DNA of 64,000 nt from Eledone cirrhosa. Its lineage: Eukaryota. Location: the NCBI GenBank assembly GCA_964016885.1, contig OZ024740.1, forward strand, positions 166,284,001 through 166,348,000, written 5' to 3'. Below the pieces are notes generated by a model, which saw only the letters and a program-made list of their open reading frames with translations, did no database searches and had not been told where the DNA came from. This document shows positions 1,539 to 64,000 of this stretch, one piece after another. Numbering within the stretch: position 1 is the first letter of the stretch; every line of letters begins with the position of its first letter. Made by a program: the position numbers and the translations under genes.

Positions 1539-1550
1539 ATATATATATAT

Positions 1551-3850
<2,300 letters not shown>

Positions 3851-3852
<2 letters not shown>

Positions 3853-4071
3853 AAAAGATTCGGAACCCCGACGGCTGAGCTCCGGCCGTTTCGACAGCTA
3901 GATCCGAACTAAGCCTGCAGTACATGGTAGCTCAGTTCGGATCTAGCTTTCGAAACGGTGGAGCTCAGCCGTCAGGGTCCTGACTCTTTCTCTATTGCCC
4001 ACTCTACTACCCTAAGTAGCGAGTACTCTGGTGTGTTATGCTCCACCTGGTATATTACCACATCTTCTTTG

Positions 4072-6508: not shown

Positions 6509-6593
6509 GTATGTATGTATGTATGTATGTATGTATGTATGTATGTATGTATGTATGTATGTATGTATGTATGTATGTATGTATGTATGTATG

Positions 6594-7196
6594 TCACCAG
6601 TTGGTGCTACTGGTAACATGTATCCCAGTACAACCTGTCTCATGGTCGGGTCGTTGGCGACTAAACTGGCAACCCCACCAAGGTTTCTTGGTGAGGAGGG
6701 GGACTTTGGACATCCTGCAGGACTAAAAACAAAACCTGTCAAAGGGCAAAGGAGCTCTCAAGTGTCAATGGCCATCCAAAATCACCAGGAGAGATGACCC
6801 CTTAGCCTTTGTCAAGGCAGAATTCTAGGAGAAGGAAAACTCTGATATAACACCTGCAACTCTGATGGTATCCAATGATGTTGACTTGTTCTTCTTTTTG
6901 GTAAATATCATCTTGGTTAAGAGAGTGGGACTGCTTTTGTGCAGTGCCTTTGCTCACTATAAAAGCTTCACGGCACAGGCATTGCTTTATATCTGGAGAT
7001 CTCTCTGCACTTGTCGTCACATGGTACCATGGGCCCAGCACTGTGTGTCAATAATTGTCACAAGTGTAGTGTTTGTACCAGAGTTTTCAAGTCGCTGGCT
7101 GGACTAACAAGTCACACTCGTTTAGCGCATCGGTAGGGGTTCTCCTACATGGGTATAAAGTAGTGGCCGTACTCGAAAACGAGTTGGCAGCCACCG
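6594..7196 (+). mobile_element. Non-coding interspersed repeat of about 600 bp, probably RTE-derived
   Basis: Close inverted copy with the same ends at 62867-63468; contains aggagaaggaaaactctg, which I recall from RTE/RTEX 5' UTRs; sits in microsatellites. Confidence 0.7.
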
Positions 7197-7235
7197 TATG
7201 TATGTATGTATGTATGTATGCATGTATGTATGTAT

Positions 7236-18157: not shown

Positions 18158-18220
<63 letters not shown>

Positions 18221-18231
<11 letters not shown>

Positions 18232-18778
18232 AAATAATGAATAAAACAATGAAACAGTTCCTTATATTAAACAAAAAAGTTCATTATTTAACGATCGTTT
18301 CTAGGATATATATGTGTTAGAATTGGCATGCATATTCAACAGATCTATGTACAAAATTATACAAAATTATACAAACTATCAAAATTAAATATACATACCA
18401 AACACATATATATGCCGTCTTCAGAAATAATGATTATTTCTGAAGACGGCATATATATGTGTTTGGTATGTATATTTAATTTTGATAGTTTGTATAATTT
18501 TGTATAATTTTGTACATAGATCTGTTGAATATGCATGCCAATTCTAACACATATATATCCTAGAAACGATCGTTAAATAATGAACTTTTTTTGTTTAATA
18601 TAAGGAACTGTTTCATTGTTTTATTCATTATTTTTTTAATATTTTATCTTGACTCTGTATTCCGTTTATCTTTCACCGAAAGTGATTTTTCATTGCATCT
18701 CTTCTTTCCATGATATCCGGATTACATTGAGTTCTTCATACGGATTGGACACTACCGTAAACTCTTGGTAGATTTATC

Positions 18779-18782
<4 letters not shown>
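18221..18782 (+). mobile_element. Solo fold-back pLTR (family E) of the Naiad at 35-42 kb
   Basis: Palindrome 18221-18645 centred at 18432, then a tail matching 42271-42408; (TA)n on both sides. Confidence 0.9.
18433..18581 (+). ncRNA. Type I HHR with stem II domain of about 115 nt (family E); antisense copy at 18281-18432
   Basis: attattt-CTGAAGA-[116 nt closed by atatatatgtgtt/aacacatatatat]-GAAA-CGATCG-TT-aaataat. Confidence 0.75.
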
Positions 18783-18809
<27 letters not shown>

Positions 18810-27279: not shown

Positions 27280-28590
27280 TAACAGTAGGACAGTAAACCT
27301 TTTAGATGTCACTCTGGAATTAGACACAGGTCTCTATCGTCCATACCACAAACCTAATGAACATCTTAAAATACGTCAACAGAAACTCCAAACACCATAG
27401 GAGCATAATTAACTCAATAGTTAAAAGCGTTTCCTATAGAGTGTCCACTCTGTCGGCAAATAGAACTATCTTCAACCAGAACGCGGAATACTACAACTCC
27501 GCACTTGAAAAGGCTGGTTACATTGAGAAGATATCTTACAATGACCCAACTAGAACCGCAACGCCGCTAAACATAATCAGACGCTTAGAAACGAACATAG
27601 ACGAGGTCACCCCACCTAGAACAAATAATAACCTAAGGCCCCCTTTAGCCGGCAGGGTAGGCAGCGTCAGACACAACCGTCAAGGAGATAAAGCTATATT
27701 CTCCAACCCCAATAAGGACTCTGATTATTGCACACGTTTACGTAGTAATAGAGACAAAAGACATAACACCAACATATTACTAGGAACCCCTATGACATAT
27801 ACGCCTTACCAAAACGCACCCACACAACCACACAACCACAAAAACCACACTAACCACCGTAAAGCCCGAAGTAGAACTGTCACCTGGTACAATGCCTCGT
27901 ATTCTATACACGGTGCCACCAATATACCGGGAACCTTCTTCAGGGCTCTTGAACAATCTTTTCCACACACACATAAATACCACAAGCTCTTCAATAGACA
28001 CACTGTAAAATTCTCTTTCTCTACAGCACCAAATCTAGGCCACACAATAGCACACACTAATAGGACACAAATACGCAAACACATGGTTGCCCCACAACAA
28101 ACCACTACCACAACCCAGAACGAAACCACATACACAACACAACATCCGACATGCCAGCTCCACACAGCATGCCAACAACCGACAACGTGCCACCACACCG
28201 GTAACCCCCAATTGCAACTGCAAAAAACGGTTAGAATTCCCACTAAACGGGGAATGCCTCATTAAAAACATTATTTACCGGTGTGATGCCACAGCTGGCA
28301 ATAAAGAGTATTCATATATAAGTGCGACCACCACTACGTTTAAGGAGCGCTGGTATAACCATAGAAGCTCCTTTAAATATAGGATGAAACGATCCCAAAC
28401 TAGACTGGCCGATCTGATCTGGGACCTCAAGGACAGGAACATCGAATTCCAGGTCACATGGTCAGTCAAAAGACGCGTGGCCCAACTCCCCAGTGACAGA
28501 AACCACTGCAGGTTATGCCTGGCCGAGGCGGCTGAGATACTCAAATTAAAATCTGCCAAAAACTATGTCGGACATAATTATCAATTGTAG
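27280..28590 (+). pseudogene. 5'-truncated, frameshifted Naiad-type PLE polyprotein (RT thumb, linker, GIY-YIG)
   Basis: LDVTLELDTGLYRPYHKPN, RTVTWYN, LFNRHTVKFSFST, CNCKKRLEFPLNGECL..IIY...YISAT..FKERWYNH..SF, CRLC; colinear with the 36.8-kb ORF. Confidence 0.9.
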
Positions 28591-33499: not shown

Positions 33500-33584
<85 letters not shown>

Positions 33585-33593
33585 CATATATAG

Positions 33594-33757
33594 GTAAAGA
33601 GTCAGGACCCCGACGGCTGAGCACCGGCCGTTTCGACATCTAGATTCGTCGGGGTCCTGACTCTTTTCCTATTACCCACTCTACTACACTAAGTATCTCG
33701 TGCATTATGTACTCTGGTGTATTATGGTCCACCTGGTTCCTTACCACACTTTCTTTG

Positions 33758-33759
<2 letters not shown>
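33594..33759 (+). mobile_element. Family C fold-back fragment
   Basis: aagagtcaggaccccgacg / cgtcggggtcctgactctt inverted pair; homologous to 3851-4072. Confidence 0.75.
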
Positions 33760-33808
<49 letters not shown>

Positions 33809-34219
33809 ATGTATACTATACATGTATTTATTATGTATATTATATGTATGTATATATAACTTTGATTAACTTTGATAACTTTGACAGAATTCAACCAGTG
33901 TTGGTCCATGGTATGTCTAACTTAATAGTTCTACTTGGGGAAGTGTTTCACATTATAAGTTTACAACCGAGTCATGTTTTAAAAACAGTGCCCCCCCCCT
34001 CATCCCTAGTGAAAAGTTGTAATTTTCTGAGAAATTTTCTAGTGTAGGGATTTTATCCAGGATCTCTTAGGCAATGGTCAAGGGAACGTTTGAATATTAT
34101 GGGATGTGTTTTGATCGTGATGTATTTTGGTATGATATTAAAGAAAGTGGGACAGTATCTCGTGCATTATGTACTCTGGTGTATTATGGTCCACCTGGTT
34201 CCTTACCACACTTTCTTTG

Positions 34220-34270
<51 letters not shown>

Positions 34271-34619
34271 ATGTATACTATACATGTATTTATTATGTAT
34301 ATTATATGTATGTATATATAACTTTGATTAACTTTGATAACTTTGACAGAATTCAACCAGTGTTGGTCCATGGTATGTCTAACTTAATAGTTCTACTTGG
34401 GGAAGTGTTTCACATTATAAGTTTACAACCGAGTCATGTTTTAAAAACAGTGCCCCCCCCCCTCATCCCTAGTGAAAAGTTGTAATTTTCTGAGAAATTT
34501 TCTAGTGTAGGGATTTTATCCAGGATCTCATAGGCAATGGTCAAGGGAACGTTTGAATATTATGGGATGTGTTTTGATCGTGATGTATTTTGGTATGATA
34601 TTAAAGAAAGTGGGACAGT
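33692..34619. repeat. Near-perfect tandem duplication of about 462 bp
   Basis: 33692-34156 = 34154-34619, with AGT microhomology at the junction. Confidence 0.92.
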
Positions 34620-35035: not shown

Positions 35036-35094
<59 letters not shown>

Positions 35095-35956
35095 TAAAAA
35101 AATAATGAATAAAACAATGAAACAGTTCCTTATATTAAACAAAAAAAGTTCATTATTTAACGATCGTTTCTAGGACATATATGTGTTAGAATTGGCATGC
35201 ATATTCAACAGATCTATGTACAGAATTATACAAAATTATACAAACTATCAAATTTAATATACATACCAACACATATATATGCCGTCTTCAGAAATAATGA
35301 AATATATTTATTGATAATAACAACAATTCAAAATTACAGGTCTGTTTGGGAACAGAGTTCAAATTGACCAATGAAATACACAAAAAATATATCCAGAAAA
35401 TACAGTTAGGTGTGTGTATATATGTAAGTAACTTCGTTCACAGATATGCATAAAAATATATGTTCACATGCATACGCATGTCGAAAAAATGTATGTAAAT
35501 ACAAAAATTCAGGGCTAATGTCTCTGTATGTCTATAATCTACAGATAAAATACACACACGTATATAAACATATATACATTCATATATACACACATAAACA
35601 TACATTCACACACACACGCGCATATACGCATAAACATACACATAACCACGAACATACACACACACACACACCCACACACACACACACACACATATATGTG
35701 TATATATTATTATCATAAGCATATGGACATTAAGGCGCGCACATAAGCACTGCCACATACATTTAGATCCAGATACAGAAAGTAGGTGTGTGGGGGGGGG
35801 GTCAGTATTTACGGGTGTCAGACAAACTGCAATATTTAAAAATGTATCTATAAATTTAGAAATAAAAAGAAGAATATTAAAAAAATATATATATATAAAC
35901 AAGTAAAATATAAAATACACATCGATATACATATATATATATATACATATATACAT

Positions 35957-36013
<57 letters not shown>

Positions 36014-36233
36014 TATACACTTACATACACACATATATACATAGAGACACATACATATACACATATAAATACATAGACACATATACGTACACACATATAT
36101 ATATATATACATATTCACAACACACATATATATATATATATACACATATATATATACACACACACACATACACATACATACCCATACATACATATATATA
36201 CACACACATACACACACACATATACACACACAC

Positions 36234-36276
<43 letters not shown>

Positions 36277-36424
36277 TACATACATACACATATATATACA
36301 CACACACACATACACATACATATTCGCATATATACACACACACACATCCATGTATGCATATACACATACAACTACACGCTCACACAACTCAGACATACAT
36401 AAATAAAGAGATATACATACACAC

Positions 36425-36473
<49 letters not shown>

Positions 36474-36547
36474 CATACATACATATATATAAAATAAATA
36501 AATAAATAAATAAATAAATAAATACACACAGTCAGACAATTATGCAC

Positions 36548-36592
<45 letters not shown>

Positions 36593-36604
36593 TACACATC
36601 AACT

Positions 36605-36648
<44 letters not shown>

Positions 36649-36746
36649 TCACATATACACGCACACATACGCATATATATACACACACACATACACATAG
36701 ACATATATATATACATACATTTAAACACATACATATATACATATAT

Positions 36747-36783
<37 letters not shown>

Positions 36784-36830
36784 CACAATCATACACCCTT
36801 ATTTACATGCGCACATATGTATTTTTATAG

Positions 36831-39248
36831 GGAACCTCTTTAAAGAATATACCAATACCTTCTAAGGATGACTTCTTACTCCTTATGATACAGAAAACTA
36901 ACCAATTTATCAGAAGAGTTAGATGGAGGGCCTACCACTTCGATAAAAAATCTAAATATGCAGATAGGAAATATATGTATGATTTCAATACTTACAAGAA
37001 TCCACCACACAACTCTCTACTTGAAGACTTTGAGAAAGACCTTTTTAATTTAATTAAACACCTCAAATTTAAGAAGTATGAATCTGTCTTTCAAAAGGAC
37101 CTTGATTCTACCCTATTGGACCTAAAAAAGTCTAAAAAAATCCATGTCCACTCGGACAAAACAGGAAACTTGTATCACATGGATATTGAAGATTATAATG
37201 AGTTCATATATAAAGAACTCAGGAAAAATTATAAAAAATCTAATAATGCGTCACTCACCAACATCAACAACAAAACACACAACATAGTAAAAAAACTAAA
37301 CATTGAAGATAGAACTGAACCTTTGGCATTGAAAAGACCACACTTCAACCTGAAGGATCATAAATCAAACTTTAACTCAAATCCTTCTATAAGACTTATA
37401 TGTCCCTCCAAATCTGATATTGGAATAATTAGCAAACAAATTTTGGATAGAGTCATCCCACAAATAAGAAAACACGTTAATTTACCACTCTGGGAAAACA
37501 CTTCCCAGGTAATTAACTGGTTTAAAAATATTAGATGTAAATCTTCTGCTTCTTTTCTACAATTTGATATAGAAAATTACTATTCTTCTATATCACCTAT
37601 ACTCCTGAACAAAGCTTTGATATTTGCTAAAAATAGATCTAACTTAACTTTGGATGACATTAATATTATTACACATGCTAGACTAACACTTATTGAATTT
37701 CAGAATGAATACTGGACCAGAAACACATATAGTAATCTATTTGATATTACTATGGGTTCAAGCGATTCCGCCCAAATTACTGATCTTGTGGGCCTCTTTC
37801 TCCTTTTCAACATAAATGCTTCCTTTCCCCACCTTAAAGGTGGTTTATATCGTGATGACAGTCTTCTTCTTTCCAACAACCTTAGCCTTTCAGAAATAGA
37901 AAAAAACAAAAAGCTTATTAGAACTTTCCTTAAAGACTATTATAGTCTTCATATTACTTTTGAAAACACAAGTAAAGTAGTTAATTTCCTAGATAAAACT
38001 TTAGACTTAGCTACGGGTATCTACCAACCTTACCATAAACCCAACCAAAACTTACACTACATACACTCACAATCTGATCACCCTAAATCTATCCTTAAAA
38101 ACCTTGCATATAATATATCACTTAGAATTTCTAACCTTTCGTCTAACCAAGATGTATTTGATAAAAATGCGACCTTCTATAACGAAGTTCTAGATAGAAG
38201 TGGCCACAACAATAGATTAGAATATATACCTTCTACTAAAAATACTATAAACATACAACCTAATATTACCAACAAACACCAAATGAAAAGTACACACCTA
38301 AATGCCACCCACACTATACCCCAAAATACCAACAACTCCTCTAATATAAAGTATAGTAACTCTCAAAAAACTACTCATCATACAACTCTAATAAATGTTA
38401 ATAATAAAACTCCTAATAAACAAGATAAAACACCTAAATCTATAAATCTAACTAAAAATGTGCGTGGTGAGATCATTAACATTAATCCCCCTAGTAAACA
38501 TCAGGATACAACCTATAAAAATAATAAACAACATAGAAACCGTAATAGACGAGTTACTTGGTATAATTCTCCATTTAATTTACAAATTAAGGATAATATT
38601 GCTAAAAAAATTGTTTATATCCTAGAGAAAAACTTCCCGCCAAACCACAAATACCATCAAATCTTAAATAGGTCAACAGTTAAATTCTCATACTCAACAA
38701 CCAAAAACATAAAACAAAATATAAGTGCCTATAATGCATATAAATGTAAGAATACCATAAGTATACCACCAATACATCAAACTAACCATAATATCTCCTC
38801 AAATACAGAATTAACGAAAGGTTGTAACTGTAGAAACAAAGCAAACTGCCCATTAAAAGGAAATTGTCTTGTTAACAACATAGTTTATAAATGTAATGTT
38901 AAAACTAAAGATTCTATTTGCTCATATATAGGAGCTACTTCTAACAATTTTAAGGTAAGGTTTAATACCCACAAACATAGTTTTAAAAATGCCGCACTAG
39001 CTAATACAACATCTCTAGCAGAAAAAATCAATAGTTATAAAAATAAGAATATAGAATATGATTTGACCTGGAGTGTGCTCAAAAGAGCCACCCCTTATTA
39101 AAATAATAGAAATGAATGTAGATTATGTTCCCAAGAACTATTTGAAATAATGAAATCTAAGGATATCCTATTAAATAAGCGACATGAATTAATTATATCG
39201 TGTAATCATAAACTAAGAAAAACATTTAAATATTATAAACCTAATTAA
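36831..39248 (+). CDS. PLE reverse transcriptase + GIY-YIG endonuclease polyprotein (one in-frame TAA at 39099; extreme N-terminus probably clipped by the inversion)
   Basis: SLKNIPIP...[58 protein letters not shown]-x5-[11 protein letters not shown]...YIG..FKVRF..H..SF; past the TAA the frame continues CRLC...LNKRHE...CNH. Confidence 0.93.
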
Positions 39249-39707
39249 TAATATAATTTTAGAAATTAATATAAAATTTAATTTAAATGTTAGTTAACCT
39301 ATAAATTTAATTTAATTAAAATTCTACTACAGTTGAGATTATAAAATATTGTGTAATCATAAATTGTGAAAAACTTTTAAATATTATTAACATAATTAAT
39401 ATATACTTTGTAAATTAATTTATAGATTAATTTTAGTTTATTTAACCTTTTATTAAAATTCCTTTACAGAGGAAATATAACAAAATAGCGTGTAATCAAT
39501 GACAGAGAAATATTTTTTAATATTATAAATCTAATTAATGTACAATTTAGAAATATATTTATAATTTAATTTTAATTTAGTTAACCTAAAATTTTATTTT
39601 AATTAGCTTAAAATTAAAATTCTAATACAGATGGATTGCAGAATATCATGTAATCATAAACTGAGAAAAATGTTAAATATATACCTAATTAATATATTCT
39701 TTACAAT

Positions 39708-39804
<97 letters not shown>

Positions 39805-40165
39805 TAATTTTTATTTTTTGTTAACCTATAATTATATATTACTATAGATAAAATACAAAATCTGTTTTAATTATTATAAACCTAATTAACATATACTATA
39901 GAAATTAATATATAATTTTTAATTTAGTTAACCTATAATTTATATTCTACTACCGATGAAATACTTGATTTGGTTTTTTTCCCTATTACTAAATTTATTT
40001 CCTAATATTGATACCATAATGTTAATATTTTTCATTTAGTTATGCTATAATTAATACTCTACTACTGTTTAACTTCAAAATTCCGCTTCAAAGATTATAA
40101 ACCTAAGTAGTATACACCTTAGAAATCAATATATTAACTATTTTTAATTTAGTTAACCTATACTT
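39195..40165 (+). repeat. Degenerate tandem repeats of about 150 bp derived from the ORF end
   Basis: tgtaatca(taaa)...aatattataaacctaattaat...ttagttaacct recurs at about 39200, 39352, 39492, 39649, with partial units at 39870 and 40093. Confidence 0.8.
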
Positions 40166-40441
40166 AATAGTCTACTTATATTAAAATGCATAATTTTGCT
40201 TTCTTTCTTACATTTCCTAATACTGAAAATACTATGTAAACACATATTATGATCTAGATGCAATTTAATATTCTATGCTCCTTGAAACCTATTTTTACTA
40301 TAATCCCCTCCCCCCTCACTATAATTATTTGTATTTGTAAGCGTGGATGTACGTATGTATATGTAGGTAGGGATGTATGTTTGGGTGCTTGTATGTGAGT
40401 ATAAAAATACATATGTGCGCATGTAAATAAGGGTGTATGAT

Positions 40442-40524
<83 letters not shown>

Positions 40525-40662
40525 ATATATATGTATATATGTATGTGTGTATATGTATGTATATATATATATCTATGTGTATGTGTGTGTGTGTATATAT
40601 ATGCGTATGTGTGCGTGTATATGTGAGTATATATATATATATATATTTGTATTTGATGTGTG

Positions 40663-40701
<39 letters not shown>

Positions 40702-40767
40702 GTGCATAATTGTCTGACTGTGTGTATTTATTTATTTATTTATTTATTTTATATATATGTATGTATG

Positions 40768-40828
<61 letters not shown>

Positions 40829-40891
40829 GTGTATGTATATGTGTGTGTGTGTGTGTGTGTATATATATTTACGTGTGTATATATATATATA

Positions 40892-40932
<41 letters not shown>

Positions 40933-41086
40933 GTGTGTATGTATATCTCTTTATTTATGTATGTCTGAGTTGTGTGAGCGTGTAGTTGTATGTGTATATG
41001 CATACATGGATGTGTGTGTGTGTGTGTGTATATATGCGTATATGTATGTGTATGTGTGTGTGTGTATATATATGTGTATGTATGTA

Positions 41087-41151
<65 letters not shown>

Positions 41152-42067
41152 GTGTGTGTGTATATGTGTGTGTGTATGTGTGTGTATATATATGTATGTA
41201 TGGGTATGTATGTGTATGTGTGTGTGTACATGTGTGTGTGTGTATATATATATATGTGTATATATATATATATATGTGTTGTGAATATGTATATATATAT
41301 ATATGTGTGTACGTATATGTGTCTATGTATTTATATGTGTATATGTATGTGTCTCTATGTATATGTGTGTGTATGTATGTGTATATATATGTATATATAT
41401 ATATATATATGTGTGTATGTATATATGTATATATATATATATGTATATCGATGTGTATTTTATATTTTACTTGTTTATATATATATATTTTTTTAATATT
41501 CTTCTTTTTATTTCTAAATTTATAGATACATTTTTAAATAGGCAGTTTGTCTGACACCCGTAAATACTGCCCCCCCCCCCCCCACCTACTTTCTGAGTCT
41601 GGATCTAAATATATGTGGCAGTGCTTATGTGCGCGCCTTAATGTCCATATGCTTATGATAATAATATATACACATATATGTGTGTGTGTGTGTGTGGGTG
41701 TGTGTGTGTGTGTATGTTCGTGGTTATGTGTATGTTTATGCGTATATGCGCGTGTGTGTGTGAATGTATGTTTATGTGTGTATATATGAATGTATATATG
41801 TTTATATACGTGTGTGTATTTTATCTGTAGATTATAGACATACAGAGACATTAGCCCTGAATTTTTGTATTTACATACATTTTTTCGACATGCGTATGCA
41901 TGTGAACATATATTTTTATGCATATCTGTGAACGAAGTTACTTACATATATACACACACCTAACTGTATTTTCTGGATATATTTTTTGTGTATTTCATTG
42001 GTCAATTTGAACTCTGTTCCCAAACAGACCTGTAATTTTGAATTGTTGTTATTATCAATAAATATAT

Positions 42068-42210
42068 TTCATTATTTCTGAAGACGGCATATATATGTGT
42101 TGGTATGTATATTAAATTTGATAGTTTGTATAATTTTGTACATAGATCTGTTGAATATGCATGCCAATTCTAACACATATATGTCCTAGAAACGATCGTT
42201 AAATAATGAA
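42068..42210 (+). ncRNA. Type I HHR in the Naiad pLTR (family E); antisense copy at 35149-35301
   Basis: ttcattattt-CTGAAGA-[104 nt]-GAAA-CGATCG-TT-aaataatgaa; 10-bp stem I. Confidence 0.78.
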
Positions 42211-42404
42211 CTTTTTTTGTTTAATATAAGGAACTGTTTCATTGTTTTATTCATTATTTTTTAAATATTTTATCTTGACTCTGTATTCCGTTTATCTTTC
42301 ACCGAAAGTGATTTTTGAATGCATCTCTTCTTTCCATGATATCCGGATTACATTGAGTTCTTCATACGGATTGGACACTACCGTAAACTCTTGGTAGATT
42401 TATC

Positions 42405-42487
<83 letters not shown>

Positions 42488-48138: not shown

Positions 48139-48712
48139 GGCTGTTTGTTTACAAACAAACCGAACATGACAATAAATGTTCGGTAAACCGATACGTACAT
48201 ATATATATGTGTGGATGTATGTATATATATATATATACTACGGTACGTCTGTATACATATATGTATGTACGTACAGATACTTACATTTAAGTATCAGCCG
48301 TACTAAGAGTGAGAACTGAAATTTCGTTTCATTCTTTTCCATTTATCGTTTTCGGTACGCCCGGCCGACTAACTCACTCGATATGCAAATTAGGCTGCTC
48401 AGTCGTTAATATGCATAAGGAAAGTATATACTATCAAACGTTCAATCATCTGACAGGAAGGTATACTGTGCTGATGACAGCTAATAAGCTTGAAACTAGT
48501 ACATCGTTCCTGTGTCAGTGTTGAACAAAAAGGTGACGATGTTTGCCGAACACTGTACTGCTTAATTTGGGCTGTTTGTTTACAAACAAACCGAACATTA
48601 TAATAAATGTTCGGTAAACTCATACGTACATATATATATGTGTACATGTATGTATATATACATACTACTGTACGTCTGTATACATATTTGTATGTACATA
48701 TACATACTTATA
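48139..48712 (+). mobile_element. Retrozyme-like element, family F, 431-bp tandem unit
   Basis: ggctgtttgtttacaaacaaaccgaacat at 48139 and 48570; HHR at 48468-48504; more copies at 51397-51543 and 57020-57329. Confidence 0.75.
48468..48504 (+). ncRNA. Minimal type I HHR (family F); second copy at 57023-57059
   Basis: gtg-CTGATGA-cAGCTaataAGCTt-GAAA-CTAG-TA-cat; palindromic ACTAGT stem III; weak stem I. Confidence 0.7.
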
Positions 48713-59481: not shown

Positions 59482-59517
<36 letters not shown>

Positions 59518-59751
59518 TATGAAGAGAGAAGAAACATTTAGATATAATTAGTAATAAAATTAATCATACCTAAACTGTTCCTAAATTCCTCGACTACGTA
59601 GTTTCGTGGCATAAACAAAAACAATATATCAAAGATAAGAGGCTTAGCTCTGTTTCTCGACCGTTATATCGCGTGACTATCTCCCCCTCCGCCTTTTGGG
59701 ATTCTTTCTCACGTCGTGTAGACGCGTTCTTGAGACTAGTAAAATGAGGTA

Positions 59752-59839
59752 TCCTCTTGATAAGTCGGCAGACCTCGCAAGGACTCTATATCTTTGATAT
59801 ATTGTTTTTGTTTATGCCACGAAACTACGTAGTCGAGGA
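59752..59839 (+). ncRNA. Type I HHR, U3-A8 variant with long stem II (family H, copy 1)
   Basis: tcctc-TTGATAA-GTcGGCA...TGCCAC-GAAA-CTACGTAG-TC-gagga. Confidence 0.82.
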
Positions 59840-60341
59840 ATTTAGGAACAGTTTAGGTATGATACATTTTATTACTAATTATATCTAAATGTTTCTTCTC
59901 TCTTCATAATGTATTTTTAACTCTGATACTGGTTCAGTCTAGTTCAACCGGATTGGTCTGTCCCAGTCATTCATTGAGCAACATCGGTGAAGTTGGCACC
60001 CTTAACTCACAGTTGGGTGCGGATGCATTCATGTATATATGTGTGTGTCCGCATGTATCTGTGTGTTTCTAAATATATTAATAACTCCCTCTGGTCGAGC
60101 AATCTTTGAAGTGTGGGGACAACTGGAAAGCTTCCATTACTCATACTTCTCGCCTTCTTCACTACCTCTTCTACGGCCTCGATATGAATACCCCCTCCGC
60201 CTCCGTGGTATTTTCTTCGTGGTTATAAGAGGCTTAGCTCTGTTTCTCGACCGTTATATCGCGTGACTATCTCCCCCTCCGCCTTTTGGGATTCTTTCTC
60301 ACGTCGTGTAGACGCGTTCTTGAGACTAGTAAAATGAGGTA

Positions 60342-60429
60342 TCCTCTTGATAAGTCGGCAGACCTCGCAAGGACTCTATATCTTTGATATATTGTTTTTG
60401 TTTATGCCACGAAACTACGTAGTCGAGGA
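60342..60429 (+). ncRNA. Type I HHR (family H, copy 2)
   Basis: Identical to 59752-59839. Confidence 0.82.
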
Positions 60430-60659
60430 ATTTAGGAACAGTTTAGGTATGATACATTTTATTACTAATTATATCTAAATGTTTCTTCTCTCTTCATAAT
60501 GTATTTTTAACTCTGATACTGGTTCAGTCTAGTTCAACCGGATTGGTCTGTCCCAGTCATTCATTGAGCAACATCGGTGAAGTTGGCACCCTTAACTCAC
60601 AGTTGGGTGCGGATGCATTCATGTATATATGTGTGTGTCCGCATGTATCTGTGTGTTTC

Positions 60660-60706
<47 letters not shown>

Positions 60707-62804: not shown

Positions 62805-62866
<62 letters not shown>

Positions 62867-63468
62867 GGTGGTTGCCAACTGGTTTTCGAGTACGGCCACT
62901 ACTTTATATCCATGTATTAGAACCCTACCGATGCGCTGAACGAGTATGACTTTTTACTCCAGCCAGCGACTTGAAAACTATGGTACAAACACCACACTTG
63001 TGACAATTATTGACACATAGTGCTAGGCCCATGGTACCATCTGACGACAAGTGCAGAGAGATCTCCAGATATAAAGCAATGCCTGAGCCGTGAAGCTTTT
63101 ATAGTGAGCAAAGGCACTGCACAAAGCCAGTCCCACTCTCTTAATCAAGATGATATTTACCAAAAAGAAGAACAAGTCAACATCATTGGTTACCATCAGG
63201 ATTGCAGGTGTTATATCAGAGTTTTTCTTCTCCTAAAATTCTGCCTTGACAAAGGCTAAGGGGTCATCACTCCCGGTGATATTGGATGGCCATTGACTCT
63301 TAAGAGCGCTTTTGCCCTTTGACAGGTTTTGTTTTTAGTCCTGCAGGATGTCCAAAGTCACCCTCCTCAACAAAAAACCTTGGTGGGGTTGCCAGTTTAG
63401 TCGCCAACGACCCTACCATGAGACAGGTTGTACTGGGATACATGTTACCAGTAGCACCAACTGGTGAC
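62867..63468 (-). mobile_element. Second copy of the ~600-bp repeat at 6594-7196
   Basis: Reverse-complement similarity over the full length. Confidence 0.85.
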
Positions 63469-64000
63469 CTGACTCTATGTATATAGTGTATATATATATA
63501 TATATATATACAAACACACATTCACACACAAGTATGTTTGCGCATATATGAAACTAAATATATCAGTTTGTGATAGTTTATATGTGTATCGATGTTTTAT
63601 AATTTTAAGGTTTTATACTATAAAAAAAATGTAAGTACACTAAAGAGTCATTAGTCTTTCAGTGAATAGAAAAGAATACAGCACGGATAAAAATGTGACT
63701 AAAGGAGTTGTATATAAGAATAAGAAAATCCAAGTTGCAATAAACAAAAAAAAAATGACAAGAAGATAGAGAGAAGAACGTAAGCCAAATTAAAACTAGA
63801 TTTTAAAATACTCTATTACAAGAATGATGCAGCTAAAGAAATAAGTATGACTATTAAATAGTTTCTCGTAAGTATTGAAAATACACACACACACACATAT
63901 TATATATATATATATATATATATGGAGAGAGAGAGAGATGTATGTAGGTAAATATATATTATGCGACAATACAGAATCTTTGAATTACATACTGATTCAA

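Follow-up and report, generated by a model that had tools for sequence, protein, structure and literature searches.

Retrozymes, U3-A8 hammerhead cores and a Penelope origin of such elements are already published, and what is said here of described systems holds for the portions of the cited papers that were compared. For the metazoan non-LTR retrozymes, PLEs have been proposed as helpers (Cervera and de la Pena 2020, PMC7229834). The U3-A8 core was described in PLEs of Schistosoma in 2014, and it is established that palindromes allow hammerheads to cleave as dimers (Cervera and de la Pena 2014, PMC4209133). The purified protein of Poseidon, a PLE of Anolis, acts on AT-rich DNA, where each of the two strands is cut and extended; synthesis begins at two internal sites of the RNA, one on each side of the tail (Frangieh et al. 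2024, PMC11167929). Naiads are reported to lack canonical hammerheads and to exist in cephalopods only as remnants (Craig et al. 2021, PMC8557442). Most recently, retrozymes have been treated as nonautonomous PLEs (Li, Clavereau, Pollet 2026, bioRxiv 10.64898/2026.07.22.740005). No report of an octopus retrozyme or of retrozyme editing was found in a literature search whose scope ended short of subscription journals and the supplements of the Li et al. preprint.

Here, we analyzed a stretch of 64,000 nt from the octopus Eledone cirrhosa (the window; contig OZ024740.1, positions 166,284,001 to 166,348,000), in which a cassette with two identical hammerheads lies at 59512-60668. Our preferred reading, with a probability of roughly 0.6, is that this element is the insertion of a non-LTR retrozyme, likely copied into (TA)n by the reverse transcriptase and endonuclease of a PLE, probably of the Neptune or Hydra rather than the Naiad type, and probably from a self-cut RNA circle.

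The cassette is flanked by (TA)n target tracts detected by TRF on the left (59485-59514) and on the right (60663-60694). Since both edges lie within (TA)n, a target-site duplication longer than 4 bp is unreadable at this insertion. The direct arm on the plus strand (59635-60668) comprises 1,034 nt or 1.75 units, is 5'-truncated, and terminates at a fixed end, named end B. It contains an exact direct repeat of 444 nt (59635-60078 and 60225-60668; 100% identical) at an offset of 590, while a 146-nt portion of the unit (60079-60224) occurs only once. Sequence comparison further revealed an inverted, 5'-truncated arm on the minus strand (59512-59641), which overlaps the start of the direct arm by 7 nt and is the reverse complement of 60374-60504 (97.7% identity; two substitutions and one deletion). 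Its outer end is the second fixed end, named end A, and it harbors only the 3' half of the ribozyme, the core being absent.

Both direct copies contain a type I hammerhead with the stem I TCCTC/GAGGA, the U3-A8 core TTGATAA, 57 nt between the core and GAAA, the palindrome ACTACGTAGT, and a GUC. In hammerhead 1 (59752-59839, plus strand), the helices of which covary across subfamilies, stem I is located at 59752-59756/59835-59839, the core at 59757-59763, the stem II insert at 59764-59820, GAAA at 59821-59824, and the palindrome at 59824-59833; cleavage is predicted after C17 at 59834. Hammerhead 2 (60342-60429, plus strand) is identical, with a predicted cut after the C at 60424. Neither had an Rfam match at the gathering score. 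The exact repeat confirmed the two identical ribozymes 590 nt apart that a preliminary description of this locus had proposed, and the 10-nt palindrome and 57-nt stem II, both present in each hammerhead, as well as the inverted arm, were likewise confirmed; the coordinates given in that description were correct.

The predicted 590-nt monomer extends from cut site to cut site (59835-60424, plus strand), has a G+C content of 42% (247/590), and is strongly folded on the plus strand only. The longest ATG frame on the corresponding circle has 75 aa, and the unit is noncoding. Just 3' of the cut site, RNAfold predicted a hairpin with one bulged G on the plus strand (59844-59896; second copy at 60434-60486). 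Thus, the bulged hairpin of the preliminary description is supported as a prediction, but not its being shared, as no common sequence was found with other elements of the window. A CCCCCTCCGCC motif at 60191-60201 (plus strand), which is kept in older subfamilies, resembles a GC box and is a putative internal promoter; a second motif is located at 59683-59693 and 60273-60283 on the same strand. The 164-nt tail (60505-60668, plus strand) lies between end A at 60504 and end B at 60668, which are 80 and 244 nt 3' of the cut, respectively.

The 21-mer of the ribozyme had 7,545 exact matches in the 3.0-Gb genome, in comparison to none for its reversed control. Since the first 100 matches corresponded to 50 insertions, we extrapolated to about 3,800 insertions. 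We read the first 50 insertions by position, 20 of 23 further position-ordered ones, and 30 best-match loci. They consisted of unit sequence in TA-rich tracts, with arms of up to five passes of the unit, and no run-on into an ORF was seen in the 70 position-ordered insertions. At least two complete ribozymes in one arm were present in 20 of the 50 sampled position-ordered insertions. The 590-nt family is young and of high copy number, and the cassette is one typical insertion. Older, noncoding subfamilies were detected at about 82%, 72%, and 61% identity. Their period is 587-597 nt, and both fixed ends recur in them; core, unit length, and fold are conserved.

The survey of genomic copies also revealed tandem units at many independent loci, and for this reason the concern raised earlier, that the tandem is an assembly duplication, was rejected. 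The 100% identity of the 444-nt repeat would suit such an artifact, or an ordinary tandem duplication or satellite at the DNA level. However, thousands of dispersed copies, independent truncation points of the tandem units in the 20 of 50 insertions, the fixed ends A and B, and the finding of the unit in public-run contigs (a matter of presence, which says nothing on expression) make an origin of this kind practically negligible.

With one type I hammerhead per unit, tandem units, the noncoding sequence, and copies throughout the genome, the identification as a retrozyme was upheld. The family resembles the metazoan non-LTR retrozymes (PMC7229834) in being composed of noncoding tandem units with a G+C content below 50% and one type I hammerhead each, in its palindromic short stem III, in its highly self-paired RNA, and in its thousands of copies. 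It differs from them in size, since the unit of 590 nt exceeds the 170-400 nt of the tested retrozymes and the 150-450 bp given for the group. It also differs in the U3-A8 core and the 57-nt stem II insert, in its dispersed two-armed insertions with two fixed ends, and in a ribozyme that is predicted to be blocked in the monomer. With the nonautonomous PLEs of Li et al. (bioRxiv 10.64898/2026.07.22.740005), it shares the likely PLE origin, a length within the range of 51-972 bp, and the two consecutive complete ribozymes used as the criterion there. In the frogs of that preprint, however, the retrozymes are linked to pLTRs by sequence, whereas the link of the 590-nt family comes from insertion footprints, and no autonomous relative was found.

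In the comparison of the young consensus with the 82%-identical older one, all 33 ribozyme positions were kept (the right half had been part of the search pattern; for the left half, 13 positions that had not, p was about 0.06 alone). Furthermore, 15 predicted pairs were broken, in comparison to 31.7 +/- 3.7 for random placement (0/2,000). In 40 aligned subfamily ribozymes, 88% of the helix cells were paired versus 30-51% when the alignment was slid, and stem I and the base of stem II changed on both sides; pairs with double changes (9, versus 8.3 in column shuffles) were not in excess. Stem III was found as ACTACGTAGT, ACTGTACAGT, and ACTGCGCAGT, and was palindromic in 69 of 76 copies, part of which had been selected by pattern. 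The innermost two neighboring bases of the palindrome change together across subfamilies, a pattern that is accounted for by a double hammerhead but not by pairing within one hairpin. The three different palindromes, representing about two independent changes, thus point to dimer cleavage, and the subfamily comparison upheld the dimer-type palindrome that had been proposed. This covariation argument may already exist in the work of Lunse et al. on dimer cleavage. When two ribozyme strands were cofolded, the double hammerhead was the minimum (-58.9 versus -45.2 kcal/mol). The hammerheads of the Schistosoma PLE Cercyon (PMC4209133) are similar in the covariation of the U3-A8 core, the short stem I, and the dimer design, but they are minimal, without stem III, and mostly single, whereas in the 590-nt family stem II is long and the palindrome measures 10 nt.

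In equilibrium folding, the active form was above the ensemble by 7-9 kcal/mol for one ribozyme and by 14-17 kcal/mol for the whole cassette, and a folding model that leaves tertiary contacts aside predicts that ribozymes in longer transcripts are sequestered. The monomer is predicted to be highly self-paired, with a z of -6.6 in linear form and, as a circle, of -5.4 for the sense strand versus -0.6 for the antisense strand. As judged from sequence comparison, the ribozyme and the whole sense-strand fold are under selection, and the element is real, well formed, and probably functional. Release of a 590-nt RNA and formation of a circle would be plausible, but the predicted energies speak against easy cleavage. 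In addition, PLE hammerheads cut poorly in vitro, and cutting occurred in only one of nine Xenopus retrozyme dimers (bioRxiv 10.64898/2026.07.22.740005).

The arms of the 590-nt family have variable 5' ends, not LTR ends, and stop at one of two places 3' of the cut site, at a distance of 80 nt (A) or of 244-246 nt (B). Partial tandems, 5' truncation, and an inverted 5'-truncated arm recur among the insertions. Ends A and B, which are 164 nt apart, were paired in 30 of 30 classifiable two-armed insertions, with no case of A+A or B+B (three more were unclassifiable); the tail is present at only one end of such insertions. In the window insertion, likewise, the inverted arm has end A and the direct arm has end B. 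The PLE-style integration suggested by the preliminary description was thereby upheld in the genome-wide comparison. This geometry is explained by the two internal start sites and the extension of both strands known from the Poseidon protein, and by analogy the A+B rule fits two internal start sites of a Penelope-type reverse transcriptase. Poseidon is also alike in its AT-rich target and in having both start sites 3' of the hammerhead. Its tail of 30-40 nt is shorter than the 164 nt of the 590-nt family, however, and in the compared portion of PMC11167929 no strand difference in the start site was seen, whereas pairing of one A with one B is strict in the noncoding family described here.

The same two-end geometry was observed in Hydra-type elements of the window (35086/42410 and 18218/18809). 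In Neptune-type two-armed loci picked for their B end (n = 10), the inverted arm ended at A in eight, at B in one, and could not be assigned in one. Tails measured 137 nt in the Hydra-clade family of the window and 63 nt in the Neptune-type family. The distance from the cut site to end A was 80 nt in both the 590-nt family and Neptune, 73 nt in Hydra, and about 55 nt in a sister subfamily, and as an indicator of the helper it was rejected.

According to the preferred reading, a tandem copy would be transcribed, and two ribozymes would pair via their palindromes as a double hammerhead and then cut, probably cotranscriptionally or aided by protein. A host ligase would close the 590-nt piece. A PLE protein would then nick both strands of (TA)n, and reverse transcription would begin at site A on one and at site B on the other. 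Synthesis of each arm would proceed round the circle over a varying distance, after which the truncated cDNAs would be joined back to back.

The haplotypes of the insertions bear on the nature of the template. Because many apparent differences within insertions were artifacts of gap placement, 77 of the 590 alignment columns were masked before counting; one segmental duplicate was counted once, and arms with less than 90% identity were left out of the variant counts. In 68 position-ordered insertions, divergence was 0.30% within arms, 0.29% between arms, and 1.8% between insertions. The low divergence within and between arms suggests that a single unit sequence usually gave rise to both arms, as would be expected of a circle. 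At sites covered at least three times, eight rare variants were present in every pass, one in a subset, and 30 in one pass; 9 of 55 full passes were nearer to another insertion. At the best-match loci, where most mosaics were found, the corresponding divergences were 0.8% and 1.5%. Subfamily mosaics were detected at L004, L005, L010, and L022. In the latter three, the subfamily haplotype switches inside one arm, and the switch of L005, located near end B, hints at template switching or at insertion into an existing copy. We conclude that the repeats of one insertion usually represent one haplotype, which is consistent with a circular template but is not a proof of it.

Homogeneous arrays could also stem from very young linear donors. 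More generally, the insertion template could have been uncut, linear read-through RNA from tandem donors, with the ribozyme acting at another stage and circles being a by-product or absent. In the purified Poseidon system, indeed, cleavage is unnecessary for insertion, uncut RNA is the main template, and ribozyme mutants insert normally (PMC11167929). The predicted sequestration of the ribozymes, the mosaic insertions, and the 88 of 96 sampled arms that span at least one cut site (in a sample picked by ribozyme match) also agree with a linear template. However, 5' truncation would shorten the arrays in every round, and yet in arms of four to five passes, as at L121, each pass of either arm has the same locus-private variants, so that a step that multiplies one unit must recur. 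Selection on the core and the palindromes additionally argues against such a template, which we consider unlikely, although it deserves to be taken seriously.

A circle would also be dispensable if the reverse transcriptase jumped from the 5' end to the 3' end of the same linear 590-nt monomer. The hammerhead fold holds the monomer ends together, and jumping would yield the same homogeneous arms. Nevertheless, the cut-site junctions were seamless in the copies read, the 5' end was within about 5 nt of the cut site in only 1 of 96 arms, without a pile-up there, and tested animal retrozymes accumulate as circles (PMC7229834), all of which makes jumping very improbable. The 5' ends of 20 of the 96 arms cluster at unit positions 355-413, which may reflect microhomology with TA.

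Variants that were inherited also differed from those that arose after insertion. Inherited variants kept predicted pairing in a ratio of 29:8, in comparison to 20:43 for postinsertion singletons. On the ribozyme strand, the inherited A>G:T>C ratio was 15:5 in the pooled data versus 5:15 for singletons (Fisher p 0.004), an excess that was not replicated in the second sample alone (3 versus 2). ADAR has a neighbor preference, with which we compared the sites; a G was the 3' neighbor at 10 of 24. The skew could be due to ADAR editing or to selection for G-U pairs, and either one would place the change in the sense-strand RNA.

The preliminary description had considered the cassette a link between a noncoding retrozyme and Naiad-type integration. 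This part of it was unsupported, since Hydra and other PLEs, like Naiads, target (TA)n and have inverted arms, and since U3-A8 type I hammerheads in this genome sit on autonomous elements, namely two Neptune-type families and one Hydra-type family (clade names of PLE families rest on motifs, not on a tree). The 590-nt family resembles the Neptune-, Hydra-, and Naiad-clade PLEs (PMC8557442) in the (TA)n bias, which Hydra families also show, the partial tandems, the inverted 5'-truncated arm, and the tail. Unlike those PLEs it contains no ORF, and its type I hammerhead is of the kind present in Hydra and reportedly absent from Naiads.

With a Naiad helper, the element would be a nonautonomous Naiad with an overlooked hammerhead. 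Naiads do insert into (TA)n and form tails and inverted arms, and the published descriptors could miss a hammerhead that combines a U3-A8 core with a stem II of 57 nt. These integration features are not specific to Naiads, however, and the published octopus Naiad end has GAAAC before CTGATGA, which is not the type I order, whereas the 590-nt family combines the type I order and covarying helices with a core variant that descriptors can miss. The stem III motif of the unit had no match in the text of the Naiad supplement, where one interrupted by a line break or a cut run could have been missed. No credible case of the Naiad DKA motif was detected in 1.64 Mb of examined, partly overlapping, selected loci, and no Naiad-type ORF (N-terminal endonuclease, CxC, DKA) was found beside any copy or in the examined loci. 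A search with a short motif from this octopus Naiad end also gave no match, a result that is uninformative on Naiads in this genome. Altogether, a Naiad origin appears quite improbable.

A search for a helper with related sequence gave negative results. A C3-G8 version with the same stem III had no match in the genome pattern search, and a short-stem-II version with the same stem I had two matches versus one for the control, yielding no sequence relative as a helper. The 35 loci from a long-stem-II search were dismissed as noncoding sister subfamilies or chance matches. No sequence relative of the unit was found at the Hydra loci or at 20 loci of other U3-A8 families, and none was found when low-stringency BLAST and an nhmmer profile of the unit were applied to the examined autonomous PLE loci. 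Among the autonomous families examined, no pLTR shared sequence with the unit, and the loose end of one contig had no match. In consequence, the clade of the helper is a guess from shared features. On these, Neptune would be our tentative first choice, at slightly less than even odds; Hydra follows closely behind, and Naiad is a possible but improbable and the least supported one.

Short-stem U3-A8 type I patterns had 2,955 matches (81 in the control), among which about 10 U3-A8 families were distinguished by eye; C3-G8 descriptors thus undercount hammerheads in this genome. The hammerhead pattern scans were nonexhaustive, one having missed a Hydra ribozyme and another the 590-nt family. The U3-A8 core was dropped as a marker of Neptune, as a Hydra-type family also has it. 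The window itself contains a two-armed Neptune-type PLE 3' end (1548-3816) with a U3-A8 type I hammerhead, a cut after 3673, and the palindrome ACCGGT. Full elements of this family, with a C-terminal endonuclease, a CX4CXXC linker, and CCHH, are located at L163-L165. U3-A8 cores are also present in a second Neptune-type family (L167, G000:C1:47.56 Mb) and a Hydra-type family (L180, L183), and a separate retrozyme-like U3-A8 family of 316-nt tandem units forms an array of six at L170-L175 (G000:C1:6.52 Mb).

A young, two-armed Hydra-clade PLE occupies window positions 35086-42410, with an ORF on the plus strand (36831-39101) that has an early stop near its end. Its protein contains the motifs RWR, DKT, and CxCx5C, and Pfam gave no informative match. 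The type I C3-G8 hammerhead of this element (approximately 42070-42200) has a stem II of about 110 nt and the palindrome ACGATCGT, and its ends A and B are at 42273 and 42410. The family has 59 scored genomic copies with 95-100% protein identity, many with open frames, and a short A+B copy is found at 18218-18809 of the window. A decayed fragment of a second Hydra-type family (27284-28560) is about 28-38% identical to the main PLE protein of the window in the longer matches.

Several smaller repeats were also noted. Another small family, with a C3-G8 type I hammerhead and a Hydra-like shape, is present at 48469 and 57024. The sequences at 3857-4070 and 33558-33760 are ends of yet another family inserted in (TA)n, with half a hammerhead whose stem III loop is palindromic. 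A two-copy tandem of 462 nt (99%) spans 33692-34619, and two copies (91%) of a 700-nt repeat lie within simple repeats (6536-7235 and 62827-63528). Elsewhere in the genome, further PLE families (L011, L104, L118, and L280; L012, L093, L094, and L112) often occupy the same (TA)n tracts as the retrozyme.

New in this analysis are the series of subfamilies with its covarying palindromes, the selection on the fold as a whole, and the negative outcome for Naiad. A more far-reaching account, which we regard as doubtful, is that thousands of insertions in the genome record how a PLE protein copies one dimer-cut, ADAR-edited 590-nt RNA circle into the two strands of a broken (TA)n tract, beginning at two fixed sites with a spacing of 164 nt. 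The family would then be a viroid-like RNA lineage, in which length, fold, and dimer palindrome would have been conserved while about 40% of the sequence changed; it would no longer share sequence with any helper and would be recognized by shape alone.

A PLE reverse transcriptase that rolls round an RNA circle is the proposed, and in the literature compared not yet demonstrated, route of animal retrozymes into DNA. The 590-nt family provides a test system for this route, in which the cut sites and the two priming sites are predicted exactly and palindrome variants occur naturally, and the young Neptune- and Hydra-type proteins of the same genome are candidate helpers.
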